Part shown: positions 4,527 to 50,847 of the stretch, in pieces
Layout of the letters: every line of letters begins with the position of its first letter
How positions within the stretch are numbered: the first letter of the stretch is position 1
Assembly: GCA_964463175.1 (NCBI GenBank)
Contig: CAYXBJ010000112.1
Coordinates: 1,331-65,330 of the forward strand
Reading direction: 5' to 3'
Length of the DNA stretch: 64,000 nucleotides
DNA from: an uncultured bacterium
GTDB taxonomy: Bacteria > Methylomirabilota > Methylomirabilia > Rokubacteriales > DASRDR01
The notes under the pieces: model-generated
The model's input: only the letters and a program-made list of their open reading frames with translations
Told to the model about the DNA's origin: nothing
Databases searched by the model: none
Position numbers and translations under genes: made by a program

Positions 4527-5615
4527 TCAGCGGGAGCGGGGCTTCTTCTTCTCCCCCCCGCGGTGCGTCGAGCTCCCTGCCAGCCAGCCGAGCCGCCAGA
4601 ACACACCGACCAGCCCCAACCCGACCGCCGCCATCACGCTCAGCACGGCCGGGTAGCCGAACGCCCACTTGAGCTCCGGCATGGACTCGAAGTTCATGCC
4701 GTAGATGCCGGCGATCAGGGTCAGCGGCAGCATGATGCTGGACACCACGGTCAGCACCCGGGCGATCTCGCTCGTCCGGTTGGCCGCCGCCGCCTGGATG
4801 CCGCCCAGGATTCCGTCGAGAAGGTCGCGGGACGAGTCGACCGCCTCGCGGATGGCCAGCGCGTTCCGGAGCATCTCGAGGAAGGCGTTCCGCCCGTCGT
4901 CACTCACGAAGCGGCTCCGCTTGGTGCCGAGGAGCATCAGCACGATGTGAAGACTGGCCGCCAGCTTCTTGAGCGTCAGGATATTGCGGGAGGCGATGGT
5001 CACACTCTCCGGCACGCCGCCGTGGCCCGCGGCCAGCTCGGCCTCGAGGAGATCGAGGTAGTTGTCGTTCGCGAGATTGAGGTGCGCGTAGTCGTAGAGA
5101 CAGCGCTGCAGGAACAGAAACGCGATGAAGCCGGGCGTCTTTCCGGCCAGACGGAAGCTGTCGATGCACGTTTCTTTGATCTGGTCGACGGCGTCCAGCC
5201 GCCGCCGGTGATACGTGATGACGTAGTCCGCACCCAGGACGAGGATCATCCGGGCGAACTCGATCTCCGTGATCGTCTGAGCGGTGTCGAGATGTGCCTC
5301 GGGCTCGTAGATGGGATACAGATAGAAGGCGAGACAGTCCGACCGCTCCACGATCCTTGGAAGCACCTCTGGCCGGTCGAAGTGAGACACGAGCTTGAGG
5401 TCGATGTCCATGCGCCGGAGGACCTCGTTCAGCGGGCTGATGTCCGGCGCCTGGATGTCGATCCAGGAGAAGACGACCGGGTCCTGCAGTTCGGCGTCGA
5501 ACCCGGCAAGGCCGAAGGTGCGGACCGTGTGGTTCGTCGGGTCGAAGCTGATGCCGTGGAAGACCAGGTCCGGCGTCGTGGCGAGCGGCGCCGGCGATTC
5601 CTTGAGCGTCGTCAT
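4527..5615 (-). CDS. corA: Magnesium/cobalt transporter CorA
   Basis: C-terminal two TM helices with the YGMNF (GMN) signature loop. Size 362 aa, typical for CorA. Confidence 0.85.
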   Translation of the reverse strand: MTTLKESPAPLATTPDLVFHGISFDPTNHTVRTFGLAGFDAELQDPVVFSWIDIQAPDISPLNEVLRRMDIDLKLVSHFDRPEVLPRIVERSDCLAFYLYPIYEPEAHLDTAQTITEIEFARMILVLGADYVITYHRRRLDAVDQIKETCIDSFRLAGKTPGFIAFLFLQRCLYDYAHLNLANDNYLDLLEAELAAGHGGVPESVTIASRNILTLKKLAASLHIVLMLLGTKRSRFVSDDGRNAFLEMLRNALAIREAVDSSRDLLDGILGGIQAAAANRTSEIARVLTVVSSIMLPLTLIAGIYGMNFESMPELKWAFGYPAVLSVMAAVGLGLVGVFWRLGWLAGSSTHRGGEKKKPRSR

Positions 5616-5697: not shown

Positions 5698-6348
5698 TCA
5701 GGCCGCCGCCCCGGATCGAGGCGCATCGGCGGGGGGCGCGGGCGCGATGACGATGTCCTCCCCCTCGAGCCGGACGCCTCCCCGGGCAAAGTACCGGCGC
5801 GTCGGGCCCATCGCCCAGTAACCGATCGACCCGACGATCTTCCGACCGGTCTTGCCCTCCATCACGTGGCGCGCAGGAGTGTTCCACCACGCCACGAGGC
5901 CGACGAGCCGGGTGAGGCCACATGCGCGTGCCCGATCGACCGCGAGAAGCGTCCCCGCGGTGTGAAGTCCTCGGCCACGGTAGCGCGGCACCGTGTAAAC
6001 GTCCACGACGCACAGGTCGCCGCGGGCTGGACGTAGCGTTCGCCCGAGATAGCGCAGGAACACCGGACGCGTGGCCTCCCAGCGCCAGTGCGCGAGCTCT
6101 CCGGCAATCCACGCTGCCCAGCATTCCTGCCCGGTGTCGAGGCGGCGCCGGACTTCGGTTCGAGCCGGGCGGAGGCCGCCCGGTCCGATCACCAGCTCGG
6201 CTGGATCATCGACCCGGCCCCAGCTCACCCCGGCGAGCCGCGGCACGCTCGCCGGAACCTCGATCGGCCGCACCGTGATCAGATATTCGCGCCGCAAGAG
6301 CCAGCTCGTGGCCACGATCGGGAGTCGGCACCCCGTGGCGGCCCACAT
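5698..6348 (-). CDS. GNAT family N-acetyltransferase (last gene of AsnB/ligase operon)
   Basis: FLRYLGRTLRP...CVVDVYTVPRYRGRGLHTAGTLLAVDRARACGL contains the GNAT acetyl-CoA-binding R-x-x-G-x-G motif. Start set to ATG 6346-6348 (MWAATG...) so it does not overlap the upstream ligase, which ends at 6390. Confidence 0.6.
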   Translation of the reverse strand: MWAATGCRLPIVATSWLLRREYLITVRPIEVPASVPRLAGVSWGRVDDPAELVIGPGGLRPARTEVRRRLDTGQECWAAWIAGELAHWRWEATRPVFLRYLGRTLRPARGDLCVVDVYTVPRYRGRGLHTAGTLLAVDRARACGLTRLVGLVAWWNTPARHVMEGKTGRKIVGSIGYWAMGPTRRYFARGGVRLEGEDIVIAPAPPADAPRSGAAA

Positions 6349-6389
6349 GTCACGCGCACGCGGCACCAGTGGGCGCCTGAACGCCGTTG

Positions 6390-7811
6390 TCACGATGGCT
6401 CGCCCACTCGTGAGCTCGTCCCGGTCGGGGTCCGTGGGATCCGGGACATGATTGCCAGTCGCTTCCCGGACGGCGTGCGCTCGATGGCGTCGACGGTCGC
6501 CACTCGCACGCGTGTTCCCGGGCCAAGCAGAGTCTCGAGCTCTCGCCGGAAGAACTCGCCGATCGCGTTCGTGTAGCGCGTCGTCGGGACCAGACGGAGC
6601 TCCACCGTCCCGGGCGACTCCTGCACGGCCTGATACTCCCACACGTACGGAACCGCGTCACCGACCGTCACGAGGCACTGCCCGAGCACCGCCGCCGAGA
6701 TCGCGCGGCCGTCGGGGGTCACCAGGGTCTCGCTCACGCGGCCCTCGATCGCGGCGATGGTCGGCCAGCCGCGGCCGCATGCGCATGGCGGACCGAGGAC
6801 GGCGGTGTCACCCAGCTCGTAATTGATGAACGGCATCACGTGGTTGACGAGGTCGGTCACAACCACGCGCCCCTGCTCCCCCGGGGCCACGCTCCTCCCT
6901 GCGGCGTCGACCACTCGTACAATCGCCCGCTCCGCGTTCACGTGCAGGACGGCGGGGTTGTCCGGGCAGGTCTGGGCAATGCGTGGAATCTCGAGACAGG
7001 AGTAGTGGCTCCGGACGGGGGCTGCAAAGGCCCGCTCGATGGCGTCGCGCTCGGGCGTCAGCAACGTCTCGGCCGCGGCAATCACGACACGCGGCGCGAC
7101 CGCCAGCGGACGCCCGTCCTCCAGCAGTTCGCGGGCGAGCCGACCAGCGTACGACGCGTATGCCCAGATATGGTACGGCCGGTGCCGCGCCCATCGGTCG
7201 ATAGCCGATCGCAGCGCTGGCAGCGTCGTGTCCGGCCCGGCGAGCCACACCTGCTCCCGGCCGAATAGCCACCGGCGCGCGCGGGCGGCAAGCGGGCCGA
7301 CATGCTTGCCCGCGAGGTACATATTCCGCGGGCTCGCGACGACGATCTCCGTGTGCCAGTAGGCGGTTTTCGCCCACTCCAGGAAGAGGAGATAGGCGCC
7401 GGTCCACGTGTCCGCGCCCGCCCGGTCCAGGAAGAACTCGAACGGCTCCCCGGTCGACCCGGACGTCACGCCGCGCAGTCGCCGGCGGTCGGGCAGATTC
7501 TCGGCGGTCACGCCGCTCGGAAAGCGGCGACGAAGGGCCGCCTTCGTCGTGATGGGTATCCGTGCCAGGTCATCGCTCGTCCGGATCGACCCGGGGTCGA
7601 GGCCAGCAGCGGCGAACAGCTCGCGGTAGTACGGGACGTGCGCCGCGGCGGGCACGACCAGCGCTTGGAGGCGCTCGGCGACGCGCGCCTCCAGCTCGCT
7701 CGGGCCCGTCCACTGCCGGGATCGCAGCCTCGTCACCTCCGTCCAGAAGCGACGCCCGGTCAGCCGCTCGCACGCCGGAAACATGAGCCGGGGAACGAGC
7801 GAGCTATACAT
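6390..7811 (-). CDS. PaaK/CapK/coenzyme-F390-synthetase-like adenylate-forming ligase, paralog A
   Basis: TSGSTGEPF AMP-binding P-loop-like motif and PaaK-family architecture (~470 aa). Start aligned with paralog B at conserved MYSSLVPRLMFPACERLTGRRFW. 8-nt overlap with paralog B stop. Confidence 0.7.
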   Translation of the reverse strand: MYSSLVPRLMFPACERLTGRRFWTEVTRLRSRQWTGPSELEARVAERLQALVVPAAAHVPYYRELFAAAGLDPGSIRTSDDLARIPITTKAALRRRFPSGVTAENLPDRRRLRGVTSGSTGEPFEFFLDRAGADTWTGAYLLFLEWAKTAYWHTEIVVASPRNMYLAGKHVGPLAARARRWLFGREQVWLAGPDTTLPALRSAIDRWARHRPYHIWAYASYAGRLARELLEDGRPLAVAPRVVIAAAETLLTPERDAIERAFAAPVRSHYSCLEIPRIAQTCPDNPAVLHVNAERAIVRVVDAAGRSVAPGEQGRVVVTDLVNHVMPFINYELGDTAVLGPPCACGRGWPTIAAIEGRVSETLVTPDGRAISAAVLGQCLVTVGDAVPYVWEYQAVQESPGTVELRLVPTTRYTNAIGEFFRRELETLLGPGTRVRVATVDAIERTPSGKRLAIMSRIPRTPTGTSSRVGEPS

Positions 7812-9201
7812 CGAGGGCGCTTTGGACTCGAGATACGATGACCGGGCGCTTGCCGGACGGCTCCGGGGGAATCCGGTCGACCACGTCCAACCGTAGCGCC
7901 ACATCGTCACCGAGGCATTCCTGAATCTCCGCCTGGAGAGCCGCGGCCGTGCCGGACGTGAAGTGTGGCGCCGGCACCACGCGGAGCACGACCTGGTCCG
8001 GCGCAATCTGCTCGGCCTGATACTCCCAGACTTCGGCCGTGCGGCTACCGAGCGAGGGTAGCTGGTTCAGGAGAATCGCCGACACCAGCCGCCCGGACGA
8101 GGTCCGGATCACTTCGCTCGTCCGCCCCTCCAGGCCGGTCAGCGTCGGCCAGCCGCGGCCGCACGGACAGATCCCCGCGTCCGCGCCCCAGTCGCCGATG
8201 TCGTAGTTCACGAAGGGCTGGACGTAGTTGGACAGGACCGTCAGCTGCAGGCGCCCGGGCTCTCCCGGCCCGGCCGGCGTGCCGTCTGCCCGCGAGACCC
8301 AGAAGACGGCCCGCTCGGAGTTCACGTGAAGAACGGCGGGATTGTCGGGGCAGGTCTGAGCGACGTGCATGGCCTCCCAGCTCGAGTAATGGTTGACCAC
8401 GCGCGCTCGAAACGCTTGGGCGATGACCGCCTCCCGTGCGGCGGTGAGGGTCTCCGAGACGCTGATCACGACGCGAGGCGACACGGGCAACCGGACGTCG
8501 GCCGCGAGGAGCCGGGTTCCGAGCTCCGCCGCGTAGGCCGGGTAGGCACGCACGTGATAGCCCCGGTGGATCGGGATGCGGGCCACGATCGCGGCCAATT
8601 CCGCAGCGGTGAGCTCGGGCCCGAGCACCGCACGGACGTCCTCGCCGAGGACGAGGCGGCGGAGCGGCCGGCTGACCTTCGAGACCAGCCACGGGGCAGT
8701 GTGGTAAGAGCGACCCAGTCGCACGCCCAGGTCAATCCGCGTCTGCCAGAGGGCCGCTCCGGCCCATTCGAGGAAGAGGAGGTAGGAGGCCAGGGTCTCG
8801 TCGGCGCTGGTCGGGTCGCCGCAGATCTCGAAGGGGAAGCCCGTTGAGCCGGATGTGGTCGTTCTGAACCGGCGAGGCGCCGGCCGGTCGTCGGCCACGA
8901 TCTCGCCCGGTGAACGGGCGCGGAGGGCTGCCTTGGTTGTCGGTGGCAACCAGGGGAGGTCCTCGATGCGGCGGACCCCCGCCGGATCGACGCCCGTCGC
9001 GTCGAAGAGCTCCCGGTAGTACGGGACGTGACGGTGGGCGTGGACCAGGAGGGCGCGCAGACGCACGGCAGCGCGGGCCGCCAGCTCGTCCGGTGAGCGC
9101 CACTGCAGCGTCCGCATCTCCTGAAATCGCGTCCACAGTCGGCGACCAGTCAGCCGCTCGTACGCGGGAAGGACGACACGGGGCACGTACCAGCTATGCA
9201 T
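7804..9201 (-). CDS. PaaK/CapK/coenzyme-F390-synthetase-like adenylate-forming ligase, paralog B
   Basis: TSGSTGFPF motif. N-terminus MHSWYVPRVVLPAYERLTGRRLW aligns to paralog A. 8-nt overlap with asnB-like stop (9194) and with the paralog A start. Confidence 0.7.
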   Translation of the reverse strand: MHSWYVPRVVLPAYERLTGRRLWTRFQEMRTLQWRSPDELAARAAVRLRALLVHAHRHVPYYRELFDATGVDPAGVRRIEDLPWLPPTTKAALRARSPGEIVADDRPAPRRFRTTTSGSTGFPFEICGDPTSADETLASYLLFLEWAGAALWQTRIDLGVRLGRSYHTAPWLVSKVSRPLRRLVLGEDVRAVLGPELTAAELAAIVARIPIHRGYHVRAYPAYAAELGTRLLAADVRLPVSPRVVISVSETLTAAREAVIAQAFRARVVNHYSSWEAMHVAQTCPDNPAVLHVNSERAVFWVSRADGTPAGPGEPGRLQLTVLSNYVQPFVNYDIGDWGADAGICPCGRGWPTLTGLEGRTSEVIRTSSGRLVSAILLNQLPSLGSRTAEVWEYQAEQIAPDQVVLRVVPAPHFTSGTAAALQAEIQECLGDDVALRLDVVDRIPPEPSGKRPVIVSRVQSALDV

Positions 9202-11119
9202 GGCCCGCCGCCATGCCAGGCGCTCGTACGTCATTCACGGCCGAGGCTCCCGGACGTCGAAATAGATCGTGCCAGAGCTGGACGCCCAGGATGGCCCACA
9301 AAAGCTGCCCGTCGGAGCGCGCGTCGGCGCGGTGGCGAGCCACCAGGGCCTGCACCGCGGCCGCATCGAAATAGCCGTCTCTCCGCAGGCGTTCCGCGGA
9401 CAACAGAGTCTCGGCGAATTCCGGAAGTCGCCCGCGCAGCCATGCCCCGACCGGTGCACGTAGCGGGCGCTTTCGCCGCCAGGCGATGGCCGGCGGCAGA
9501 TCCGAGGCCATCGCTCGGCGCAGGATGTACTTCTCGCGGCCCCGACGCAGGCAGAGCCGCCCCGGAATTCCGGCCGCCAGCTCGATCAATTCGTGATCGA
9601 GAAACGGCACGCGCGCTTCCAGACCGAACGCCATCGTCGTGCGGTCGAGGCTTTCGGTCATGTATCCGGCCAGCCGAGTCAGGAGGTCGTGATATCGCAG
9701 TCCGGCGAAGCGGTCACAGGGCGTGGACGGGTCACCCGGAGGGTCCTCGGCGGTAGTCCCTCCACCGAGCTGAGCCCGGAGATCGGCAGCGAGCAGCGTG
9801 CGGCGGGTTTCGCCGCCGAGCGGGCCGGCCAGACAGGCGTATCGGGGGAGGTCCATCTCGGCGGGCGCCAGCAGGAGCCGGCTCCCCCATGGCCACCGCC
9901 TGCGCCCCATCCCACCCAGGAGCAGGCCATTCCGGAGCCACCGCGGGAGCCGTGACGCCGAATGCAGGAGGCGGTCGCCGAGATGCCACGCATAGCCACC
10001 GAAGACCTCGTCCGCGCCCTCGCCGGTCAGCACCACCTTGACGCGACGAGCCGCCGTCTCGGCCAGCAAGAAACGTGGCAGATCCGGCGTATACGCGGCG
10101 GGCGTTTCCACGTGCCACAGGACCTCGGGGTAGCGGCGAAGGGATGCCGCGTCACACACGACACGCTCGTTCGGCAGCTCCTGCCCCGGAACCTGGGACA
10201 AGAGTCGCTGGCCACGTGTCTCGTCATAGTCGGCTGACTCGAAGGCGACGGTAAACGTGGGAAGTGGACCCACGATCCCGCGGGCAAGGGCCACGACCGC
10301 GCTCGAGTCCAGGCCGCCGCTGAGCCAGGCTCCCAGGCCCACGTCGGCCCGCGTATACAGCGCGACGGTCTCCGCCAGCTTCGCGTGGAGATCCTCGGCC
10401 CACTCCCGGCCGCTCCGCTCGGAAGGCCGCTCGCGGGACAGAACCTCCGCCAGCCGCCAGTATGGCCGGACCACGGAGCGTCCACTCTCGTAGACGAGCC
10501 AGTGGCCAGGCGGCAGTCTCCGGATCCCGGAGAAGAGCGTGCCGGGATCCCGCACGAAGCCGAACAGGAGGAGGTCGTCGAGCGCCCGCACGTCGAGGGG
10601 TCCGGGCTCGACGCCCCCCGCGAGGATCGCCTTCTGCTCCGATGCGAAGTGGAGGCCCGCAGGCCCCTCGAAGTAGTGGAGCGGCTTGATGCCGAGCCGA
10701 TCCCGTACGAGCCAGAGTCGTCGGCGCCGCGTGTCCCACAGCGCGAAGGCGAACATGCCGCGCAGGCGACCGACGCTTTCGACGTCGTCTTCCTCATACA
10801 GGTGGACGATGACCTCGACGTCGGAGTTCGTGCGAAATTGGTGGCCGCGGGCTTCGAGCCCGGCGCGGAGCGTCGCGTGGTTGTAGATCTCGCCGTTGCA
10901 GACGACGAGGAGCGAGCCGTCCTCGTTGCCTATGGGCTGGTCGCCGGAGGCGAGGTCGATGATGGCGAGGCGCTGGACGCCCAGGCCGATACCGGGCCCG
11001 GTGTACACGCCGCGGCTGTCCGGCCCGCGATGCCGCAGCGTGCCCGCCATCCGTTCCACGAGCTCACGCGGCGCTGGCTGCCTCGCATCGGACAGGGCCA
11101 CACCGGCGATTCCGCACAC
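9194..11119 (-). CDS. Asparagine synthetase (glutamine-hydrolysing) family amidotransferase (AsnB/WbpS-like)
   Basis: Begins V/M-CGIAG, i.e. the Ntn glutaminase nucleophile Cys is directly after the start codon. SGGLDSS PP-loop ATP pyrophosphatase motif present. 641 aa. GTG start 11117-11119 is preceded by a GGAGGA RBS (spacing 5). Confidence 0.85.
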   Translation of the reverse strand: MCGIAGVALSDARQPAPRELVERMAGTLRHRGPDSRGVYTGPGIGLGVQRLAIIDLASGDQPIGNEDGSLLVVCNGEIYNHATLRAGLEARGHQFRTNSDVEVIVHLYEEDDVESVGRLRGMFAFALWDTRRRRLWLVRDRLGIKPLHYFEGPAGLHFASEQKAILAGGVEPGPLDVRALDDLLLFGFVRDPGTLFSGIRRLPPGHWLVYESGRSVVRPYWRLAEVLSRERPSERSGREWAEDLHAKLAETVALYTRADVGLGAWLSGGLDSSAVVALARGIVGPLPTFTVAFESADYDETRGQRLLSQVPGQELPNERVVCDAASLRRYPEVLWHVETPAAYTPDLPRFLLAETAARRVKVVLTGEGADEVFGGYAWHLGDRLLHSASRLPRWLRNGLLLGGMGRRRWPWGSRLLLAPAEMDLPRYACLAGPLGGETRRTLLAADLRAQLGGGTTAEDPPGDPSTPCDRFAGLRYHDLLTRLAGYMTESLDRTTMAFGLEARVPFLDHELIELAAGIPGRLCLRRGREKYILRRAMASDLPPAIAWRRKRPLRAPVGAWLRGRLPEFAETLLSAERLRRDGYFDAAAVQALVARHRADARSDGQLLWAILGVQLWHDLFRRPGASAVNDVRAPGMAAGHA

Positions 11120-11205
11120 GCGCGAATCCTCCAGATCCCCTGTCGGGAAGGCGCGGCCAGTATGACACGCGGGCCGGCGCAGTTACCGGCCGGCGCACCC
11201 GATGG

Positions 11206-11742
11206 CTACACTCCGCGCGCCGTCGTCCAGCGCCGCTGGACCATCGGAACGGCCATGGCGGTGCGCCACGTCGTCGACGCCCCGAGCGCGCCCAGAACCA
11301 CCAGGCTCAGCGCGATGCCGACGGGCCACGGGGCGACCATGAACCCGAGAGCCGTCGCCAGCTCGCGCCCGGCGAACCAGTCCGTGACGATCTTCGCGAG
11401 CTGCATGTTGAGGAGCACGCCGCCCGCGCCGCTGACGAGTCGGCCGCCCGCGACCACCGGCCACGACTGGCCGATCACCAGGGCCGCGCCGCCGAGCGTC
11501 ATCAGTGCGAGCGCCGACAGGACGACCGCGCGATCGCCGAATCGCGCGCCGAGAAGACCTCCGGGCATCGCGAGGACCGCGCCGGGCAGGAGATAGAGCC
11601 CGATCAGCGTGCCGAGCTGCGCGTAGCTGAGGCCGAGGTCCGCCACCGGGAGCGGACCCACGGCCGCGGCCGACTGGAACTGGAAGGCCATGGCGGTCCG
11701 CGCCACCACCACGAGGCCGAGGACGGCCCATCGGCTTTGCAC
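11206..11742 (-). pseudogene. MFS transporter N-terminal half only (6 TM, 178 aa). Probable truncated remnant
   Basis: MFS-like TM helices (motif A-like GARFGDR) but the ORF stops after about six helices. Only 87 nt separate the stop from the asnB-like start, so there is no room for a C-terminal half. Confidence 0.45.
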
Positions 11743-11861
11743 GCGCCAAGGCTACTCAATTGCCGGCTGTCGTGGAACCCGACAGTCCGGACGGTCCCCG
11801 GCTGAATAGGCCCCCGGCGCCCTCCATCCAATTGGTCGTGAACAAGGAGGAGGACACGACA

Positions 11862-12359
11862 ATGAAGAAGATTCTGGTAGCCGCTCTGGTCCTGCCGGTG
11901 GCGCTGCTGGGCGCCGCGCGGCCCGCCAAGGCCAGCGACAAGGCCGCGGCGATCTTCGCCGGTGTGGCGGCGGGCGTCGGCGCCGCGCTGATCTTCGATG
12001 CGCTCGTCCCGCACCCCGTGGTGGTGGCCCCGGCGCCGGTCATCGTCCAGGCGCCCCCGCCGCCGCCGGTTGTGTACCAGCCGGCGCCCGTGGTGTATCA
12101 GGCGCCGCCCCCGGTGGTGTATCAGCCGGCGCCCGTGGTATATCAGGCGCTGCCCCCGGTCGTGTATGAGGCCGCGCCCGTGGTATATCAGGCGCCGCCG
12201 CGGGTCGTGTACCGGGCGCCAGTGGTGGTCCAGGCGCCGCCCCGTGTGATCGTGAAGCACCCCCGTCGCGTCGTTTACACGCCGGGTCCGGCCTACGTCC
12301 GTGACGGCCACGGCCACTGGGTGACGCCGCCGCCGGCCCGGGAGCTCTACCAGCGCTAG
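11862..12359 (+). CDS. Secreted proline-rich tandem-repeat protein (about seven repeats of P-V-V-Y-Q-A-P)
   Basis: AGGAGG RBS 7 nt upstream of ATG 11862. Signal peptide MKKILVAALVLPVALLGAARPAKA. Body of 21-nt repeats. The track ORF 11760..12359 has a non-coding-like extension. Confidence 0.6.
   Translation: MKKILVAALVLPVALLGAARPAKASDKAAAIFAGVAAGVGAALIFDALVPHPVVVAPAPVIVQAPPPPPVVYQPAPVVYQAPPPVVYQPAPVVYQALPPVVYEAAPVVYQAPPRVVYRAPVVVQAPPRVIVKHPRRVVYTPGPAYVRDGHGHWVTPPPARELYQR
12036..12245 (+). repeat. Tandem 21-nt (heptad-codon) repeats inside the proline-rich protein gene
   Basis: Visible repeats ccggtggtgtatcaggcgccg / cccgtggtatatcaggcgctg etc. encoding PVVYQAP variants. Confidence 0.6.
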
Positions 12360-12603: not shown

Positions 12604-13521
12604 TTAGCCCGCTTGCTGGAACAGCGCGTAGCGCTCCGCCAGGAACTCGGGATTGGGGCGCGAGTCCGCGCGTCGGGGAATTGTGATCTTCGTGCCCTGG
12701 AATCTCAGGAGTCCGTGTTGAAGCGTGGGGCCGTCCTTCTCGCGCAAAATGTCTACCCGGAGTTCCACCGTCAGGTCAGGGCGGATTCCGAGTAAATGCC
12801 GATCGAATGCTGCGTGGTGAAGACTGCACAGGGCGAGGCCATTGGGGACCACCGGCTCCCCCCGCGGGTGTCCGTCGGGCAGAATGTGCGCCGCATCGAG
12901 TAGTTCCCGGTGCCGGAAGCGACAGACGGCACACTGCTCCCGATACGCGTGGAGAATGCGCTCCCGGAACGCGCGCTGATGGACCCGCTGGAGCGCGACC
13001 CTCGTGACGTACCGCCGACGCACGTCTGCCGCGAGCATCTGGTCGGGGCTCCCCGTCGAGAAGAGGCGATCACGATCTTCGATCAGTACGGTGAAACAGA
13101 GCCCCCGCGGATCATCCTCCACGATATAGGCGGGCCAGTCAGCCACATACCGGCCGGGAACGATGCCGTGCAAGTACACGAGCGGGGTACGTCGCTGCAT
13201 GGCCAATCGCAGGCCTATGTTGTCACGGTGTGCAGGATCAGTCCCCCTGTATCGGTAACGAATGACACCATCAGGCCCGATCTCGTCGTCATACGGGCGC
13301 GGACGTCCTGCAACCGCGGGGGCCGTAGCTATGCTGAGCGGCATGTCGGGCAGGATGGCGGGCTTGAAGATTCCCTGTGGGCCGAGCAGGGGCACGCGGC
13401 GGCCCTCGAAATCAAAACCACGCAGAAGTGCCTCGTACGGCAGGGTGTCTGGATGGCGGAGTGTTAGCTCCCCGAGGAACTGAAAGGCCGCAAGTCGCAC
13501 ACGACTGTCGAGGTCGCCCAC
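12604..13521 (-). CDS. Putative modification-dependent (type IV) restriction endonuclease: N-terminal SRA/YDG-like domain + C-terminal HNH (HNH_2) nuclease
   Basis: C-terminal CAVCRF...LLDAAHILP...NGLALCSLHHAAFD matches the HNH_2-type Zn-finger nuclease. N-terminal YDDEIGPDGVIRYRYRGTDP resembles the SRA/YDG base-flipping motif (Y-E/D-D-D...G...Y.Y.G.G). The gene has clearly lower GC and atypical codons (AGT, CTT, TTT, ATA, GAT) compared with its neighbours. Confidence 0.6.
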   Translation of the reverse strand: MGDLDSRVRLAAFQFLGELTLRHPDTLPYEALLRGFDFEGRRVPLLGPQGIFKPAILPDMPLSIATAPAVAGRPRPYDDEIGPDGVIRYRYRGTDPAHRDNIGLRLAMQRRTPLVYLHGIVPGRYVADWPAYIVEDDPRGLCFTVLIEDRDRLFSTGSPDQMLAADVRRRYVTRVALQRVHQRAFRERILHAYREQCAVCRFRHRELLDAAHILPDGHPRGEPVVPNGLALCSLHHAAFDRHLLGIRPDLTVELRVDILREKDGPTLQHGLLRFQGTKITIPRRADSRPNPEFLAERYALFQQAG

Positions 13522-13639: not shown

Positions 13640-15622
13640 TCAGATCGCGCGGCCGACGCGCGCGGCGTCCAGCATGGCGAGGAGAAGCGTCCGGGGCGCG
13701 TAGGCGTCGCCGATGAGATGGAGGGCGGGCGCGTCCTCCCGCCCCGCGGTGAGCGTGGCGAGCTCGTGATAGAGCTGGTCCCGCGCCTGGCCGCCCGAGG
13801 CAAGGATCACCGTGTCGGCGGGGATCGTCCACTCGGCGTCCGTCAGCATGTGGCGCACGCGCACGCGGCCCGCGTCGATGGCGACGGGCGCCGCCAGCAC
13901 GGTGATCGTCACGCCCTGGCGCAGGAGGCGCTCGAGCAGCTTGGCGCGGAGAGTGGTGCCGATGTCCTCGCCGAGGCTGTACTGGCGCGTGACGATCTCG
14001 ACGGCGTGGCCGGCCTGGCTGAGCGCATCGGCCACCTTCGGTCCGGGGGTATAGCTCGTCTCGTCCAGGATCACGGCGCGCCCGCGGATCGGCGCGGTCC
14101 CGGCCAGCACGTCGGTCGCGGAAACGACGTGCGCCCGGTCGACGCCGGGCAGCCGCGGCCGGCGCGGATCGGCGCCGGTCGCCACGACCACGGCGTCCGG
14201 GCGCTCCGCGAGCACCGCCGTCGCGGTCGCGGCCACGCCGAGCCGCACCTCGACCTTCAGCCGGCTGATCTGCCGGGCGAGCCAGTCGATCGCGGTCGCG
14301 TAGGCTTCCCATCCCGGCGCCCGCGCCGCAATCCGCAGCGCGCCGCCCAGGCGGCCCTCGCGTTCGAGGAGCGTCACGCCATGGCCGCGCTCGGCCAGGA
14401 CGCGCGCCGCCTCCATGCCGGCCGGGCCGCCGCCGACGACCAGGACCCGCCGCGCGGTGGCCGCCGGAACCAGCGTGCCCCACTCGCGCTCGCGCCCGAT
14501 AACGGGATTCTGGACGCAGCCGATCGGCAGCCCGAAGTAGAGGCGGTCGATGCAGCCCTCCGCCGAGCCCATGCACACGCGGATGTCGTCGAGCCGGCCC
14601 TCGCGCGCCTTCCGCGGCAGCTCCGGATCGGCGATCAGGGCGCGCGTCATGCCCACGAGATCCGCCGCGCCGCTCCGGAGCACCTCCTCGGCCTGAGTCG
14701 GCGTCACGATCCGCCCGGTGACGATCACCGGCGTCCGCACCGCCGCTTTGATGCGGGCCGCTAGGTGCACGAACGGGCCGAGCCCGTAGTACGCCGAGGG
14801 ATTGTTGTAGCCCCGCGAGCGGAACGTCGAGATCGTCCCGCCGGTGACTGTGAAGTAGTCGAGCTGACCGGTCCGGTCCAGTCGCGTGATGATCTCGAGC
14901 AGCTCGTCCGGCTGGAGGCCCTCCGGCAGCGCGTCGTCGCCCGAGATCCGCGCGCCGACGACGAAGTCGCGGCTCACCGCGCCGCGCACCGCCTCGAGCA
15001 CCTCGAGCGAGAAGCGCATCCGGTTGTCGAGACTCCCGCCGTACTGATCGGTCCGCAGGTTGATGGCGGGACTCCAGAACTGGTCGGGCAGCTGGTCGGC
15101 GTAGAACGCGAGATCGGCACCGTCGAAGCCGCACGCCTGGAGACGCCGGCACGACGCGGCGTAATCGTCGACCATCCGGCGGATCTCGCCCACCGACAGC
15201 ACGTGAGGGATCCCCGGCGAGAGCTGGCTCGACGTGGCGGAGGGACCCGAGCCGCACCGGTCGAGGTGGTGATAGCTGCGCCGGCCGCTCGAGGTGACCT
15301 GGCTCAGCGCGAGCGCGCCATGCGCCTTGACGGCCCGGGCGGCCGCCCGGAGCCCGGGCTCGGCGGCCGGATGCCAGAGGTTGACGTGATTCGGCGGCGT
15401 CGGGGTCTGCGGCGACGCGGAGGCGGACCCGAACATCATCACGGTTCCGCAGCCGCCGGCCGCCTTCGCCGCGTGATAGGCGATGATCCGCTCGCCCGGC
15501 GCGCCGTCGACGGCCATGTTCGTGCCGTGGCTCGTCGAGACGATCCGGTTCGGCGCCTCCGCGTGGCCGCGCGGGCCGAAGCGAAACGGGCTGAAGAGGA
15601 GGGGGAACGGCGACGGGGCCAT
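13640..15622 (-). CDS. OYE-type NADH:flavin oxidoreductase with 4Fe-4S and C-terminal FAD/NAD(P)-binding domain (2,4-dienoyl-CoA reductase / trimethylamine-dehydrogenase family)
   Basis: N-terminal LFSPFRFG...HGAHGYL-type old-yellow-enzyme TIM barrel. Cys cluster VCMGSAEGCIDR...IGCVQNP. GxGxxG Rossmann motif (VVGGGPAGMEAA). 660 aa. Confidence 0.8.
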   Translation of the reverse strand: MAPSPFPLLFSPFRFGPRGHAEAPNRIVSTSHGTNMAVDGAPGERIIAYHAAKAAGGCGTVMMFGSASASPQTPTPPNHVNLWHPAAEPGLRAAARAVKAHGALALSQVTSSGRRSYHHLDRCGSGPSATSSQLSPGIPHVLSVGEIRRMVDDYAASCRRLQACGFDGADLAFYADQLPDQFWSPAINLRTDQYGGSLDNRMRFSLEVLEAVRGAVSRDFVVGARISGDDALPEGLQPDELLEIITRLDRTGQLDYFTVTGGTISTFRSRGYNNPSAYYGLGPFVHLAARIKAAVRTPVIVTGRIVTPTQAEEVLRSGAADLVGMTRALIADPELPRKAREGRLDDIRVCMGSAEGCIDRLYFGLPIGCVQNPVIGREREWGTLVPAATARRVLVVGGGPAGMEAARVLAERGHGVTLLEREGRLGGALRIAARAPGWEAYATAIDWLARQISRLKVEVRLGVAATATAVLAERPDAVVVATGADPRRPRLPGVDRAHVVSATDVLAGTAPIRGRAVILDETSYTPGPKVADALSQAGHAVEIVTRQYSLGEDIGTTLRAKLLERLLRQGVTITVLAAPVAIDAGRVRVRHMLTDAEWTIPADTVILASGGQARDQLYHELATLTAGREDAPALHLIGDAYAPRTLLLAMLDAARVGRAI

Positions 15623-15665: not shown

Positions 15666-16685
15666 TCACCGTCCGCGCGCCGGCGCGCCGGGCTTCACCG
15701 CCCGCGCGACGGCCGCGATGTGCTCCGGTCGCATCCCGCAGCAGCCGCCGACGATGGCGTAGCCCTCGCCCACGTAGCGCCGCGCGTGATCGGCCAGCTC
15801 CTCCGGCGAGACCGTGTGCTCCCAGCGCCACTGGTACATGTCGTAGCGCCCGTTGTTGGGATAGACGCCGAGCGGCAGGGACGTGAAGCCGCGGAGCCAC
15901 GGCGCCACCCCGTGGGCATTCGCCGGCGGCAGGCAGTGGACCAGCACGGCGCCGGCGCCCACCTCCTCGAGGCGCCGGGCAGCGCGCCCGAACAGATCGC
16001 CGTCCGCCGGCAGCGCGTCGCCGAAGATGCCGACCGGGCCACCCACGCCGCGGCGGTATGCGACCCACAGGGGGACTCCCGTCGCGACGAGCGTCCCGTA
16101 GTGCGGGAAGCTCAGATCCTCGGGGATGGGCGGCGCCAGCTCGACGAGGAACGCGTCCGGCGGCTCCGACTCGAGGGCTCGCGCGAGGTCGCGGAGGTAC
16201 TCGTGCGAGACCATCTCCTTCCAGTCCTTGCTGCCGCGACCGCTGCTCGCCCGGTTGTCGGGCCAGTCGGCCTTCGGCGAGTCCTGGATCATCATCGCGA
16301 AGACGACCGCGAGGTCCGGCCGGCCCCCCTCGCGCGCTGCCTCGCGAGCCAGGCGCACGCTGAGCCGCGCCTTCTCGCGCCACGTCCCGGCCGGCACGGC
16401 CAGGTCCCCGTCCTGCTCCATGCGCACGCACCGGTGGAACATGAAGGTGTTCGTGAGGAGGATGTCGGCGCCGGCGTCGACGTAGCGCCGGTGCATCGCC
16501 TTCACCGTCTCGGGAGCCTCGTAGAGCCCGAGCGTCCCCCAGGTGAAGTTCACCGGGCGGTCGGCCCGGGCCGGAGGATAGCCCATGGCCTGGAGCTCCG
16601 AGCCGATCCCGCCGTCCATGACGGTCGGCTCCCCGCGCGCCCACCGCGCCTTGAGCTGACGATAGACCGACGATTCGTGGCTCAT
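15666..16685 (-). CDS. Homocysteine S-methyltransferase (MmuM/BHMT family)
   Basis: MDGGIGSEL...ILLTNTF...GGCCG (C-terminal Zn-binding Cys pair) is typical of Pfam S-methyl_trans. Start ATG 16683-16685. Confidence 0.75.
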   Translation of the reverse strand: MSHESSVYRQLKARWARGEPTVMDGGIGSELQAMGYPPARADRPVNFTWGTLGLYEAPETVKAMHRRYVDAGADILLTNTFMFHRCVRMEQDGDLAVPAGTWREKARLSVRLAREAAREGGRPDLAVVFAMMIQDSPKADWPDNRASSGRGSKDWKEMVSHEYLRDLARALESEPPDAFLVELAPPIPEDLSFPHYGTLVATGVPLWVAYRRGVGGPVGIFGDALPADGDLFGRAARRLEEVGAGAVLVHCLPPANAHGVAPWLRGFTSLPLGVYPNNGRYDMYQWRWEHTVSPEELADHARRYVGEGYAIVGGCCGMRPEHIAAVARAVKPGAPARGR

Positions 16686-16828
16686 GGGTCTCGACGCGCG
16701 GCATGATATACGCGCCTCGGTTTCCGCCACAAGGCGTCATGCCGCGCGCGGCGATGAATCGATCGCGCGAGGCCCGCCGCCGGGCGCCCCGCGAGCCGAG
16801 ACCGCGAGGTCACGGCCGATCGCGGGCG

Positions 16829-31624: not shown

Positions 31625-32545
31625 TCATAGCTCGCGCGGGCAGCCCGGCGCCGTCGACCCGAGCGCGTGGGCCATCGCGCGGAGATGCGCGGGCGCGCTC
31701 CCGCAGCAGCCGCCGACGATCCGGACGCCCGCGGCGACGAGTCGCTTCGCGTAGTCGGCCATCTCCTCCGGGCTCCCGCGGTAGACGGCCTTCCCGTCCT
31801 CCAGCACCGGCAGGCCGGCGTTCGGCTTGGCGACGAGCACCGCGTCCGGGACGGCCGCGTGCATGGCGACCATCGCGGGCAGGAGCTCCGCCGGGCCGAG
31901 GCCGCAGTTGCCGCCGACCGCCGCGGCGCCGAGCGCGGTCAGCTCCTTCGCCGCCTGCTCGGGGCTGACGCCCATCATCGTGTGCCCGTGGGTGTCGAAG
32001 CTCATCGTGACGACCACCGGCACGCCGGGCGCCGCCTGGCGCACGCCCTCGAGCGCGGCCTCGACCTCCTCGAGCGCCGACATGGTCTCGATCCAGAACA
32101 CGTCGACGCCGCCGGCATGGAGGGCGGCCGCCTGCTCGGCGAATCCCTTGACGGCGTCGTCACGCTCGAGCTCCCCGAGGGGCGCCAGGATCCCGCCGCT
32201 CGGGCCGATGTCGCCGGCGACGACGGCCCGGCTGCCCGGCGCGTGCGCGATCGCCCCGGCGAGCCTCGCCGCGGCTTCGTTCAGCTCGGCGACCCGCGTG
32301 TCGAGGCCGTGAAGCGCGAGGCGGAACCGGTTCCCGCCGAACGTGTTGGTCAGGAGGATCCGCGCGCCGGCGTCCTGGTACGCGCGGTGGATCTCGCAGA
32401 TCACGTCGGGGCGCTCGACGTTCCAGCGCTCCGGGGAGTCGCCGGAGGTGAGCCCGGCCTCGAAGAGCATCGTGCCCATGGCGCCGTCTGCCAGGATCGG
32501 GCCCGGCGCCGCGAGAAGCGCCCGCCAGCGCGCGCCGTCAGGCAA
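31625..32545 (-). CDS. Homocysteine S-methyltransferase-domain protein (MetH N-terminal-like; candidate methylcorrinoid:homocysteine/THF methyltransferase)
   Basis: ILADGAMGTML...ILLTNTF...VGGNCGLGP...GGCCGSAPAHL (Zn-binding Cys triad pattern). Start is probably the TTG at 32543-32545 (8-nt overlap with the corrinoid-protein gene), so the start is low confidence. Confidence 0.7.
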   Translation of the reverse strand: MPDGARWRALLAAPGPILADGAMGTMLFEAGLTSGDSPERWNVERPDVICEIHRAYQDAGARILLTNTFGGNRFRLALHGLDTRVAELNEAAARLAGAIAHAPGSRAVVAGDIGPSGGILAPLGELERDDAVKGFAEQAAALHAGGVDVFWIETMSALEEVEAALEGVRQAAPGVPVVVTMSFDTHGHTMMGVSPEQAAKELTALGAAAVGGNCGLGPAELLPAMVAMHAAVPDAVLVAKPNAGLPVLEDGKAVYRGSPEEMADYAKRLVAAGVRIVGGCCGSAPAHLRAMAHALGSTAPGCPREL

Positions 32546-33224
32546 GGGAGCCGCCCATCTTCTCGGCCATGAGGCGCTTCGCCGTCGCGACGGCCTTCGC
32601 GGCGTCGCGGCAGTAGGCGTCGGCGCCGATCGTCTTCGCGAAGTCGGCGTTGAGCGGCGCGCCGCCGACCAGGACGATGAGCTTCTCGCGGAGCCCGGCC
32701 TCCTTGAGCGCCTGGATCACCACGCGCATGTACGGCATCGTCGTCGTGAGAAGCGCGCTCATCCCGAGGATGTCGGCGCCGTGCTCGCGCACGGCATGCA
32801 GGAACTTCTCGACGTCGGTGTTGATGCCGAGGTTGATGACCTGGAAGCCGGCCCCCTCCATCATCATCCCGACCAGGTTCTTCCCGATGTCGTGGATGTC
32901 GCCCTTGACGGTGCCGATGACGAGCGTGCCGATGCGCGGCGCGCCGGTCTCGGCGAGGAGGGGCCGCAGGACCTCCATCCCCCCCTTCATCGCCTTCGCG
33001 GCCATCAGCACCTGCGGGACGAAGAGCTTCCCGGTGCGGAAGTCCTCCCCCACGACGTCCATGCCGGCGATGAGGCCCTGGGTGAGGGCGTCGTAGGGCG
33101 TGAGCCCGCGGCGGAGGAGTTCGTGGACGCCGGCCACGACGGGCTCGACGTGGCCGCCGTAGAGGTTGTCCTGGATCTGCTCCAGGAGCTCCTCGAGCGG
33201 CAGCTGCGTGAGGTCGCTACTCAT
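32538..33224 (-). CDS. Cobalamin (B12)-binding corrinoid protein (MtgC/MtbC-like)
   Basis: DxHxxG B12-binding motif (GDIHDIGKNLV) and cap + Rossmann B12-binding domain organisation. 228 aa. Confidence 0.8.
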   Translation of the reverse strand: MSSDLTQLPLEELLEQIQDNLYGGHVEPVVAGVHELLRRGLTPYDALTQGLIAGMDVVGEDFRTGKLFVPQVLMAAKAMKGGMEVLRPLLAETGAPRIGTLVIGTVKGDIHDIGKNLVGMMMEGAGFQVINLGINTDVEKFLHAVREHGADILGMSALLTTTMPYMRVVIQALKEAGLREKLIVLVGGAPLNADFAKTIGADAYCRDAAKAVATAKRLMAEKMGGSLA

Positions 33225-33227
33225 TCG

Positions 33228-43235: not shown

Positions 43236-43475
43236 TCGGGTTCCTCTCTCTCGCCGGCGATTCGTCGCCGGCCTTCACCTCCTCACTACGCATTCGCACC
43301 GCCGGACGGTTTTCACGCGGCGGTCACCGCGTCTTCGAAGCCGAACGACGTTCCAAAGATTGCGTCGTCGGAGAGCGTCTGATAGGATGCCCGCGTTCGC
43401 TAAGTCCGCGTCACTTCGACGGTGCATCAGGATTGCGGTACCAGGTCGCAAGCCACTTCGTCGCTGGGGAGGTCC

Positions 43476-45656: not shown

Positions 45657-46762
45657 AGGTCCCTCAGTTCGACCTCACGCGCCAGTACGAGACGCTCGAG
45701 CCCGAGATCGAGTCGGCGATCCGGCACGTGCTGCGAGGAGGCCGGTTCATCCTCGGCCCCGAGGGCGAGGCCTTCGAGGCGGAGTGCGCCGCCTATCTGG
45801 GCGTGACCCACGCGATCGGCGTCGGGTCCGGCTCGGACGCGATCAAGCTCTCCTTGCAGGCGCTTGGCGTCGGCCCCGATACCGAGGTGATCACCCCCGC
45901 GTTCTCCTTCGTCGCCTCCGCGACGGCCGCCCTCGAGCTGCGGGCCCGGCCCGTCTTCGTCGACGTCGAGCCGGCCACGCTCACGCTCGATCCGGACCGC
46001 GTCGCGGACGCCATCACGCCGCGGACGCGGGTGATCCTCGCCGTCCACCTCTACGGGCTGCCGGCCGCCATGGGCCCCCTCCGGGTTCTCGCGGAGTCCC
46101 GCGGGGTGCACCTCGTGGAGGACGCCGCTCAGGCGTTCGGCGCGACCCTCGGCGGCCGGGCGGTGGGCGGGCACGGCCACGCGGCGGCGTTCAGCTTCTA
46201 CCCCACCAAGAACCTGGCGGCCTACGGCGACGCCGGCCTGGTGACGACCGCCGACGCGACGCTCGCCGGGCATCTCCGCCGGGCCCGGAACCACGGCCAG
46301 ACGCAGAAGTACCGGCATGACGAGATCGGCTGGACGGCGCGGCTCGACGAGCTCCAGGCGGCCATCCTGCGGGTGAAGCTGCGGCATCTCCCGGAGTGGA
46401 CCCGCGCCCGGCAGGCCATCGCCGCGCGGTACGGCGCGGGCCTCGCGGGACTTCCCGTTGTCCTGCCCGCCGAGCGCCCGGGCGCCACGCACGTGTACCA
46501 CCAGTACACGATCCGGACGACCCGACGGGACGCCCTCGCGGCGCACCTCACCGCCGACGGCATCGGCACCGCCTGTCACTATCCGCTGCCCATCCCCGCG
46601 CAGCCGCTCTTCCAGGAGCTGGGATACGATGCCGAGGCCTTCCCGGCGTCGTGGGCCGCCGCGCGGGAGGTGCTCTCCCTCCCGTGCTTCCCCGAGCTCC
46701 GGCCTGACGAGATCGACGCCGTCATCGCCGCCGTCCGGGGTTTCTTCGAAGGAGATCGCTGA
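45653..46762 (+). CDS. DegT/DnrJ/EryC1/StrS family PLP-dependent sugar aminotransferase (1 of 3)
   Basis: GSGSDAI...FSFYPTKNLAAYGDAG (Lys in the F-x-P-T-K context). ATGA overlap with the lptD stop. Confidence 0.85.
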   Translation: MKVPQFDLTRQYETLEPEIESAIRHVLRGGRFILGPEGEAFEAECAAYLGVTHAIGVGSGSDAIKLSLQALGVGPDTEVITPAFSFVASATAALELRARPVFVDVEPATLTLDPDRVADAITPRTRVILAVHLYGLPAAMGPLRVLAESRGVHLVEDAAQAFGATLGGRAVGGHGHAAAFSFYPTKNLAAYGDAGLVTTADATLAGHLRRARNHGQTQKYRHDEIGWTARLDELQAAILRVKLRHLPEWTRARQAIAARYGAGLAGLPVVLPAERPGATHVYHQYTIRTTRRDALAAHLTADGIGTACHYPLPIPAQPLFQELGYDAEAFPASWAAAREVLSLPCFPELRPDEIDAVIAAVRGFFEGDR

Positions 46763-47715: not shown

Positions 47716-47727
47716 GCAGCGCGGCGC

Positions 47728-48672: not shown

Positions 48673-48709
48673 CCGGACGCCCCGGCCTCCGGCGGTAGAA
48701 TGAAGGGTC

Positions 48710-49516: not shown

Positions 49517-49520
49517 CGCC

Positions 49521-50804: not shown

Positions 50805-50847
50805 CAGCCCTGACCACCGCACGCCGCGCACCCTGTCGGAACGCGCC

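Follow-up and report, generated by a model that had tools for sequence, protein, structure and literature searches.

A compact Candidatus Rokubacteria gene cassette combining an AsnB-type amidotransferase, two PaaK/CapK-type ligases and a GNAT, with a possible role in forming small amide-linked molecules

Analysis of a 64,000-nucleotide stretch of DNA (hereafter the window; high-GC, ~70%) from an uncultured bacterium of the Rokubacteriales (phylum Methylomirabilota; GenBank assembly GCA_964463175.1, contig CAYXBJ010000112.1, positions 1,331 to 65,330 of the forward strand) revealed a head-to-tail, minus-strand run of four intact open reading frames (ORFs) from position 11119 to 5698. They encode, in order, a glutamine-hydrolysing amidotransferase of the AsnB family, two paralogous adenylate-forming ligases of the PaaK/CapK type (Lig1 and Lig2) and a GNAT-fold acyltransferase. 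The cassette probably builds or decorates an amide-linked molecule. By analogy with the pathways to N-acetylglutaminylglutamine amide (NAGGN) and the dapdiamides, we favor, tentatively and with somewhat less than even confidence, the view that Candidatus Rokubacteria carry it as an accessory, horizontally shuffled unit, which would form amide bonds with ATP and yield a small N-acylated, C-amidated product. The gene structure, the coupling, the catalytic motifs, the synteny, the purifying selection, the recurrent ligase-GNAT and ligase-AsnB linkage and the recurrent decay described below are observed.

Gene layout and translational coupling

The four coupled genes occupy 5.4 kb and are given here in the order in which they are read:

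11127..11132, minus strand: Shine-Dalgarno-like GGAGGA, 7 nucleotides before the AsnB GTG start (read directly from the sequence)
9194..11119, minus strand: AsnB-family glutamine-hydrolysing amidotransferase, 641 amino acids, GTG start (Pfam, NCBIfam and PDB matches)
7804..9201, minus strand: Lig1, PaaK/CapK-type adenylate-forming ligase, 465 amino acids, ATG at 9201 (family alignment and structure matches)
6390..7811, minus strand: Lig2, paralogue of Lig1, 473 amino acids, ATG at 7811 (family alignment and structure matches)
5698..6393, minus strand: GNAT-fold acyltransferase, 231 amino acids, GTG start at 6393 (Pfam, AlphaFold, Foldseek and family alignment)

At the AsnB/Lig1 junction, ATGCATAG (9194-9201) holds the ATG of Lig1 and its TAG is the AsnB stop, and at the Lig1/Lig2 junction, ATGTATAG (7804-7811) holds the ATG of Lig2 and its TAG is the Lig1 stop, giving an 8-nucleotide overlap in each case. 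The ligase starts were placed at 9201 and 7811 and not at the longer ORF starts 9234 and 8006, in agreement with the N-termini of 23 homologues, which share the conserved sequence M-[HY]-[SR]-W-L-V-P-R. This N-terminus dictates the 8-nucleotide overlap, its codons 2-3 providing the TAG. For the GNAT, GTG 6393 is the most likely start, which would overlap the Lig2 stop by four nucleotides (GTGA), since family members align back to that N-terminus and the gene calls at the homologous locus L001 carry the same overlap. All three start/stop overlaps (8, 8 and 4 nucleotides) are conserved in L001, and the ligase-ligase ATGTATAG overlap is also kept in L087, from a distant lineage with 64% GC.

A previous reading of the window, made from the sequence only, had described the four minus-strand genes with their end points, the two 8-nucleotide overlaps and a GGAGGA ribosome-binding site before the first gene. 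The ORF list and the junction sequence confirmed each of these sequence-level statements, and the GTGA overlap is added here, as the sequence-only reading had left the GNAT start open. An Rfam scan of the operon and its upstream region found no riboswitch or other known RNA. A sigma-70 scan found no promoter-like site, and terminator-like sites were no commoner than in shuffled sequence, making that scan uninformative. PADLOC gave no match, and an anti-phage defence system was rejected as a reading.

Catalytic motifs of the four enzymes

The glutaminase domain of AsnB (GATase_7, PF13537, E = 7.5e-43) opens with MCGIAG, which places the Cys2 nucleophile directly after Met, and continues with RLAIIDL, CNGEIYN and SDVEV. 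Equivalents of the glutaminase residues Arg49, Asn74-Gly-Glu and Asp98 are all present, identifying the protein as a class-II (N-terminal nucleophile, Ntn) amidotransferase. The synthetase domain (Asn_synthase, PF00733, E = 2.6e-82) retains the PP-loop LSGGLDSS and the segment GEGADEVFGGY of the Glu348/Asp351/Tyr357 type. The protein passes the general model of glutamine-hydrolysing asparagine synthases, TIGR01536 (417.9 bits; cut-off 267.1). The best-scoring AsnB subfamily model was TIGR03108 (XrtA/PEP-CTERM), with 460.5 bits and E = 1e-137, below its cut-off of 816.9. Scores also fell below the cut-offs of the NAGGN model TIGR03104 (354.5 vs 570.1 bits, the best stretch aligning only residues 1-379), the E. 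coli-type AsnB model PRK09431 (294 vs 499 bits) and the lasso-peptide cyclase model NF033535 (214.7 vs 525 bits). On these scores, an exosortase amidotransferase, a NAGGN amidotransferase and a lasso or macrolactam cyclase were rejected as identities of AsnB; no leader-peptidase-type domain was found among the genes annotated in the cluster and its flanks, where short precursor ORFs were not specifically looked for. The closest solved AsnB structures are the hydroxyamidotransferase 7ylz (1.5e-55), which we take to act on a small-molecule carboxylate, followed by E. coli AsnB 1ct9 (2e-49).

Lig1 and Lig2 are 46% identical, and both keep every invariant column of a 25-sequence family alignment (TSGSTG, YS..E, QTCPD, NYxxGD, CxCGRG, EGR and SGKR). 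These columns include the adenylation motifs of ANL/PaaK-like enzymes, namely the P-loop TSGSTG, YS..E, NYxxGD, the hinge EGR and the C-terminal SGK lysine. Among NCBIfam models, the ligases match only those of the PaaK type, at about one-tenth of the cut-offs: TIGR02155 (cut-off 646) gave 45.6 bits for Lig1 and 78.2 bits for Lig2, and NF041878 (cut-off 700) gave 72.8 and 101.1 bits. The coenzyme F390 synthetase model TIGR03335 (cut-off 458.7) gave 16.2 and 48.8 bits. Bona fide PaaK, F390 synthetase, FlxY, BagE/FevW and DVU_1553, all far under cut-off, were rejected as identities of the ligases, and no paa genes were found in the flanks of the window. The closest ligase structures are PaaK, AjiA1, NatL2 and 2-hydroxyisobutyryl-CoA synthetase; as a single sequence, Lig2 matched PaaK 4r1l at E = 1.1e-23 and AjiA1 at 9.5e-19, while the ligase-family profile matched 4r1l at E = 1.1e-35. 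Neither ligase had a match in the Pfam set used, which does not contain CapK_C (PF27533); homologues with 75-80% identity carry this domain according to precomputed annotation, mostly flagged weak. The Cys/His motif QTCPD ... CxCGRG was considered as a novelty of the family and rejected, as Bacteroides PaaK 4r1l has the same cysteines.

The GNAT matches Acetyltransf_1 (PF00583) marginally (21.4 bits; cut-off 20.7) and has no NCBIfam match. Its AlphaFold model (predicted local distance difference test score, pLDDT, 83) led Foldseek to generic GNATs (VipF, MshD and AAC(6')) with probability 1.0 and a template-modelling score of ~0.5. The acyl-CoA motif A of GNATs (R/Q-x-x-G-x-G/A) is present as RYRGRG (RxxGxG), inside a nearly invariant block of the family alignment, and both the fold and the motif therefore place the protein among the GNATs.

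These results bear out the enzyme assignments made from the sequence only. The amidotransferase had been described as an intact Ntn-type enzyme with Cys after the start and an SGGLDSS PP-loop, and its catalytic motifs are indeed in place. The two paralogous PaaK/CapK-type adenylating ligases were assigned to the right family with their adenylation motifs intact, and neither turned out to be a bona fide PaaK within a paa operon. The sequence-only reading had named best matches to housekeeping AsnB and to such a PaaK as evidence against itself, and this outcome did not arise. The GNAT call agrees with the marginal Pfam match, the predicted fold and the RYRGRG motif.

Conservation of the cassette and its flanks

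The cassette lies between two further features, as the sequence-only reading had placed it:

11206..11742, minus strand: MFS transporter remnant, N-terminal 178 amino acids, pseudogene (Pfam; comparison with L001 and L073)
4527..5615, minus strand: CorA Mg2+/Co2+ channel gene, conserved directly downstream of the cassette

The four-gene order with its overlaps is present in at least six other Rokubacteria/Methylomirabilota contigs, and the full order MFS-AsnB-Lig1-Lig2-GNAT-CorA was found in L001-3, L009/L019, L017, L073 and L090, at 75-81% amino-acid identity. This recurrence of the same gene order and overlaps is more than chance, and the absence of four-gene synteny elsewhere, which the sequence-only reading had named as evidence against itself, was not what we found. 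Comparison with L001 gave ratios of non-synonymous to synonymous substitution (dN/dS) of 0.18 for AsnB, 0.14 for Lig1, 0.28 for Lig2 and 0.29 for the GNAT, a range of 0.14-0.29 that indicates purifying selection; the ratio for CorA was 0.22. Given the shared synteny and the purifying selection, the four genes are real, functional and inherited as a unit within the clade. The Lig1 orthologues of L009 (3969-5358) and L017 (11925-13309) appear frameshifted, and in L090 the matches to the ligase and its neighbour are split into many short pieces; either could reflect an assembly error or a pseudogene.

In relatives, the MFS gene is full length (384-393 amino acids), lies on the same strand and directly precedes AsnB (L001 5388-6560; L073 250-1460). 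Relative to these orthologues, ~650 bp are deleted in the window and two thirds of the gene are gone, so that the window copy has lost its transporter gene with the four enzyme genes intact. CorA probably belongs to the flanking backbone and not to the cassette, since deletion of the cassette leaves it in place. The backbone comprises citrate synthase, enoyl-CoA hydratase, a CoA-transferase and CorA on one side and hydantoinase A/B on the other, and these genes are not part of the pathway, since the flanks are the same whether the cassette is present or deleted.

A variable core, recurrent partners and repeated loss

Beyond this clade, the composition of the cassette varies. Distant Rokubacteria (L012-L016, L039, L053, L071, L083 and L092) carry a plus-strand ligase and GNAT followed by a convergent, minus-strand ligase, without AsnB or MFS, at a different site, where the neighbours are MtnA, an aminotransferase of the aspartate/serine-glyoxylate type and the end of the dcw cluster. 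The comparison indicates that the conserved core is ligase-GNAT(-ligase), with AsnB and the adjacent MFS found in one clade only. Thus, the four-gene operon proposed as a unit in the sequence-only reading holds for one clade, in which order and overlaps are conserved, but it is not fixed across relatives and the module has repeatedly been deleted. A third ligase follows CorA in L001-3 (L001 13457-14851), groups with the 'convergent' ligases of distant Rokubacteria and is absent from the window. Orthology of Lig1 and Lig2 to the 'upstream' and 'convergent' ligases of distant Rokubacteria was considered and dropped, as the neighbor-joining tree was star-like and gave no resolution.

The ligase family is large, with 416 matches among the candidates scored, mostly at ~50% identity, and tandem arrays of two or three ligases are common (L001, L027, L033, L037, L089, L098 and L045). 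AsnB-type genes directly adjoin this family in three further lineages, L045 (61% identity), L040/41/43 (37%) and L087 (28%), an adjacency that is not expected by chance because there are few AsnB genes per genome. By these sequence comparisons, AsnB was recruited to the ligases more than once. Within 6.4 kb, L045 holds an AsnB and a GNAT together with three ligases, two of which share only ~30% identity with Lig2.

The GNAT family, in turn, is small: a word-indexed search of 5.8e9 proteins returned 22 homologues, and a profile search returned 95 clusters at E<=1e-30. At all readable loci, the GNAT adjoins the ligase family or ligase remnants. A scan of GTDB with the GNAT profile found seven loci, all seven in metagenome-assembled genomes (MAGs) of Candidatus Rokubacteria/Methylomirabilota and all seven with a ligase or ligase remnants directly adjacent. 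Two long proteins of 640-650 amino acids, P0379 and P0392, carry the GNAT-family domain at their C-terminus, while the first 400 residues of each probably form an ATP-grasp carboligase. This assignment draws on weak but concordant profile matches (PRK12767 at E ~1.5e-4 in both proteins; the five best matches of a PDB profile search all ATP-grasp enzymes, aligned at the ELNPR Mg-ATP loop) and on the name given to P0379 by its source, JGI, which is also ATP-grasp; a single-sequence AlphaFold model of the fusion reached a pLDDT of 34. A ligase-GNAT fusion as a Rosetta stone was rejected, as both long proteins join the GNAT to the probable ATP-grasp domain and not to a PaaK-type ligase. In L099 (4344-9920; Deltaproteobacteria MAG JAHLLJ010000001.1), the genes ahead of the fusion encode a 771-amino-acid protein with no Pfam match and a member of the Mur-ligase family, and GT2 genes and a FemAB-like gene are close by; in L100 (8001-12042) it adjoins two proteins with weak PEP-CTERM domain matches. 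The ligase adjacency and the ATP-grasp fusions together indicate that this GNAT family partners with ATP-dependent carboxylate-amine ligases from two or more unrelated folds.

Decayed copies are recurrent. L005/L010 (9200-10004) retain a chimeric remnant of Lig1 (residues 211-381) and Lig2 (residues 382-473) next to an intact GNAT, which suggests recombination between the paralogues. In L007/L008/L011 (L007/L011 9500-9910), AsnB residues 1-97 are joined to Lig2 residues 389-441, again with an intact GNAT, and in L006 (8632-11033) the ligases are broken and the GNAT ORF is intact. From these junctions, the cassette was deleted independently in different lineages and is evolutionarily unstable. 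L007 and L011 are the same strain (synonymous divergence 0.01) and so provide no pair for testing selection on the orphaned GNAT after the deletion.

A proposed route to amide bonds and its alternatives

Carboxylates are adenylated by enzymes of the ANL/PaaK type, which hand the acyl group over to CoA or straight to a nucleophile. GNATs move an acyl group from acyl-CoA to an amine, and AsnB enzymes activate a carboxylate as its adenylate before amidating it with ammonia released from glutamine. From these chemistries we infer all substrates, the use of CoA, the order of steps and the nature of the product as a free small molecule in the following scheme. The core would be a ligase coupled translationally to a dedicated GNAT, together with a second, non-redundant ligase paralogue; in the clade of the window, an AsnB-type amidotransferase and an MFS transporter would have been added upstream. 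Each ligase would first adenylate a carboxylate and deliver the acyl group to CoA or straight to an amine. The GNAT would then N-acylate the amine partner from acyl-CoA, either acetyl-CoA or the ligase product, and AsnB would finally turn the remaining free carboxylate into a carboxamide through an acyl-AMP, with ammonia from glutamine. The close and widespread coupling of ligase and GNAT suggests one of two arrangements: the ligase may make the acyl-CoA donor of the GNAT, in a two-step amide formation comparable with glycine or glutamine conjugation, or the GNAT may cap the amine of the ligase product. With the second ligase adding another unit and AsnB amidating the leftover carboxylate, the pathway would end in a small compound resembling an amino acid or dipeptide, N-acylated at one end and C-amidated at the other.

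A free small-molecule product is favored because no glycan gene accompanies the Rokubacteria loci, because the cassette moves as a self-contained unit and because a transporter gene lies upstream in the AsnB clade. No exosortase, glycosyltransferase, sugar-nucleotide or flippase gene was found within ~10 kb of the cassette in more than 10 Rokubacteria loci examined, and no exosortase, PEP-CTERM or extracellular polysaccharide genes were found in the ~10-kb flanks of the window, L001, L005, L007, L016 and L017. The cassette occupies two unrelated genomic positions, between hydantoinase and CorA and at the end of the dcw cluster with MtnA, with no glycan genes alongside in either.

Several observations weigh against the proposed small-molecule route. 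No protein of the cassette reaches the cut-off of a characterised subfamily, and 61 of 80 metagenome loci of the ligase family show no partner gene, many of those contigs being short. The GNAT is intact in two lineages without AsnB and ligases and may therefore have a role of its own, and the MFS gene, which L007 retains despite having lost the enzymes, may belong to the backbone and not to the cassette. Where it is full length, the MFS protein is weakly more like organic-acid importers than drug exporters. In L018, a 60%-identical AsnB stands alone, and for this reason the AsnB of the cassette might only supply asparagine. Finally, ligase homologues elsewhere stand beside a GT9 heptosyltransferase or near GT2, PlsC-type acyltransferase and PMT_2 genes, and the fused GNAT homologues lie near GT2/FemAB-like or PEP-CTERM genes; these contexts fit modification of a polymer or the envelope.

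These last contexts lead to the strongest competitor, tailoring of a glycan or of the envelope, which we regard as unlikely but still a credible rival. Under this alternative, the ligases would couple an amine or amino acid to carboxylates, such as those of uronic acids, in a polysaccharide, lipopolysaccharide or peptidoglycan precursor, AsnB would make uronamides or other amidated residues and the GNAT would N-acetylate an amino sugar. It would account for TIGR03108 being the best-scoring AsnB model and for the CapK_C domain on ligase homologues, and it finds further support in the AsnB-ligase-GT9 heptosyltransferase arrangement of L040/L043, in L072, where a singleton ligase has GT2, PlsC-type acyltransferase, GNAT-like and PMT_2 genes nearby, in the surroundings of the ATP-grasp-GNAT fusion (GT2s and a FemAB-like gene in L099; PEP-CTERM proteins, weakly, in L100) and in an O-antigen-type locus with two DegT aminotransferases in the window itself. 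However, the TIGR03108 score is far under its cut-off, the Rokubacteria loci lack a glycan gene inside ~10 kb of the cassette, and neither of the two unrelated cassette positions has taken glycan genes along. The O-antigen-type locus, at 46.7-60.7 kb of the window, lies ~35 kb from the cassette, with no uronic-acid enzyme among the ten genes scanned in it, and the cassette is lost in close relatives with flanks visibly unchanged within ~10 kb. The sequence-only reading had likened the gene set to tailoring modules of exosortase and O-antigen loci and put the glycan locus at ~30 kb; that locus is present, at the slightly larger distance measured here, and the likeness retains indirect support from the L043, L099 and L100 contexts only, as the TIGR03108 and TIGR03104 models failed and no such genes lie near the Rokubacteria cassettes. 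A search of the literature on CapK, on F390-synthetase-like ligases in polysaccharide amidation and on AglU found nothing usable.

Uptake and conjugation or assimilation of an exogenous aryl or alkyl acid, which we consider improbable, would have the MFS protein import the acid, the ligases make CoA thioesters, the GNAT acylate an amino acid and AsnB supply or amidate the partner. The symporter models for D-galactonate, aromatic-acid:H+ and MhpT do rank highest for the full-length MFS of L001 (E between 7e-11 and 2e-8), but these matches are weak and far below the cut-offs. Similarly, the nearest characterised relatives of the ligases are aryl-acetate CoA ligases, a singleton homologue in L004 follows a thiamine-pyrophosphate-dependent enzyme, and CoA-transferase, enoyl-CoA hydratase and citrate synthase genes lie in the flanking backbone; yet the CoA-transferase and hydratase remain where the cassette is deleted and thus belong to the backbone and not to a pathway. 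In addition, no cassette-specific ring-oxidation or beta-oxidation genes were found, AsnB has no obvious catabolic role and a single conjugation needs no two distinct conserved ligases.

That the cassette is a relic heading for loss in this genome, making nothing useful and open only because its decay is recent, is less probable still: the ~650-bp deletion in the upstream MFS gene, the independent large deletions of AsnB and ligases in L005/L010 and L007/L008/L011, the broken ligases of L006 and the absence from the window of the third ligase of L001-3 would fit such a fate, but the four ORFs are full length with every family-invariant residue, the overlaps and ribosome-binding site are intact, dN/dS is low, and an AsnB identical to that of the window over 96% of its length recurs on several JGI contigs and one 168-kb NCBI contig, independent metagenome contigs that point to a version carried by an established population.

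Other features of the window

The O-antigen-type locus belongs to the region 43422-60746, in which LptD is followed by an ABC-transporter-dependent O-antigen-type locus with two GDP-mannose-dehydratase-family enzymes, Wzm, Wzt (with a Wzt_C domain), a methyltransferase, two GT4 glycosyltransferases and the two DegT aminotransferases. Close to the cassette, between the MFS remnant and an HNH gene, a plus-strand ORF at 11760-12359 encodes 199 amino acids with no Pfam match, largely proline-rich repeats of the P-P-V-V-Y-Q type. It contains a tandem DNA repeat at 12058-12243 (period 21/24/45 nucleotides, ~4-7 copies, 68-83% match), and similar sequence is present in L001, L005 and L017. The minus-strand gene at 12604-13521 encodes a 305-amino-acid HNH_2 endonuclease-domain protein, with a local GC of 0.65 vs ~0.72 and a third-position GC of 0.72, far under its neighbours; its homologue in L001/L002 was called at only 113 amino acids. 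This gene borders the variable region and may be mobile or of foreign origin.

Further away, three minus-strand genes at 31625-34754 encode, in a row, an MttB-family methyltransferase (of either the pyrrolysine or the non-pyrrolysine type), a B12-binding corrinoid protein and a homocysteine S-methyltransferase-family protein, an arrangement that suggests demethylation of a quaternary amine or methylamine. A second homocysteine S-methyltransferase-family gene (15666-16730, minus strand) lies beside a flavoprotein resembling old yellow enzyme/2,4-dienoyl-CoA reductase (13640-15622).

Comparison with known systems and implications

The NAGGN pathway combines the amidotransferase AsnO (TIGR03104) with Ngg, a bifunctional GNAT/ATP-grasp enzyme, to make the N-acetylated, C-amidated dipeptide N-acetylglutaminylglutamine amide. 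Like it, the Rokubacteria cassette is small and joins a GNAT with an ATP-dependent carboxylate-amine ligase and an AsnB-type amidotransferase, and some members of its GNAT family are fused to a probable ATP-grasp ligase. In contrast to NAGGN loci, its AsnB is under the TIGR03104 cut-off, an M42 peptidase is missing, the GNAT is stand-alone and of a separate family, and the ligases, two of them, are of the PaaK/ANL fold, whereas the NAGGN ligase is an ATP-grasp enzyme. The dapdiamide pathway uses the ANL-type amide ligase DdaG, the AsnB-type amidotransferase DdaH, the ATP-grasp ligase DdaF and an efflux pump. The likeness here is one of logic, with no sequence orthology expected: stand-alone adenylating ligases act with an AsnB homologue to lengthen and amidate a small acyl-amino acid, and the cluster includes a transporter; unlike the dapdiamide cluster, the cassette lacks genes for diaminopropionate synthesis and epoxidation, includes a GNAT and comes from another phylum.

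Among single enzymes, PaaK (TIGR02155; 4r1l, 2y27) shares with the ligases its fold, its adenylation motifs and, in Bacteroides, the C...CxCGR cysteines, but the cassette ligases are ~40 residues longer, have the P-loop TSGSTG(F/E)PF vs SSGTTGKPT in PaaK, lie outside any paa operon and score 46 and 78 bits vs 646. PaaK-like ligases such as NatL2 and AjiA1 form ester or amide bonds without CoA in small-molecule biosynthesis. Together with BagE/FevW, they (6siw, 6wuq) are among the closest solved or curated relatives of the cassette ligases; E-values reach only 1e-16 to 1e-19 as single sequences for NatL2/AjiA1, no aminobenzoate pathway genes accompany the cassette, and the BagE/FevW score is 58 vs a cut-off of 800. 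The XrtA/PEP-CTERM amidotransferase (TIGR03108) and the O-antigen uronamide synthases (WbpS) are expected to share the amidation chemistry of AsnB, but the cassette differs from both in its score under 817 and in the lack of adjacent exosortase, PEP-CTERM and glycan genes at the Rokubacteria loci.

A broader and more doubtful extension of the small-molecule reading is that stand-alone PaaK/CapK-type ligases constitute a mix-and-match, non-ribosomal and thiotemplate-free assembly system, with a building block per ligase, the GNAT as amine cap and AsnB as carboxylate cap. If true, it would provide a new family of small N-acyl peptide amides, acting as osmolyte, signal or antimetabolite, and the tandem ligase arrays with their variable AsnB, GNAT, ATP-grasp and Mur-ligase partners would be versions of one system.

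No concept is overturned by these findings, since all four enzyme classes and the logic of activation, acylation and amidation have precedents. What is new is a probable ATP-dependent amide-forming and amidating cassette built, in an uncultivated phylum, from a small and private GNAT family and from PaaK-like ligases of an uncharacterised branch. Hardly any of the specialised metabolism of the Rokubacteria/Methylomirabilota, which abound in soil and are uncultivated, has been explored. The cassette ties a very large ligase branch, with hundreds of homologues at ~50% identity, to a GNAT family that is small and dedicated and, in several instances, to AsnB. With four coupled genes in 5.4 kb, it is compact enough to make synthesis and heterologous expression practical, and solving its chemistry would give the ligase branch a function and reveal whether enzymes of the PaaK fold serve in it as amide synthetases on their own.

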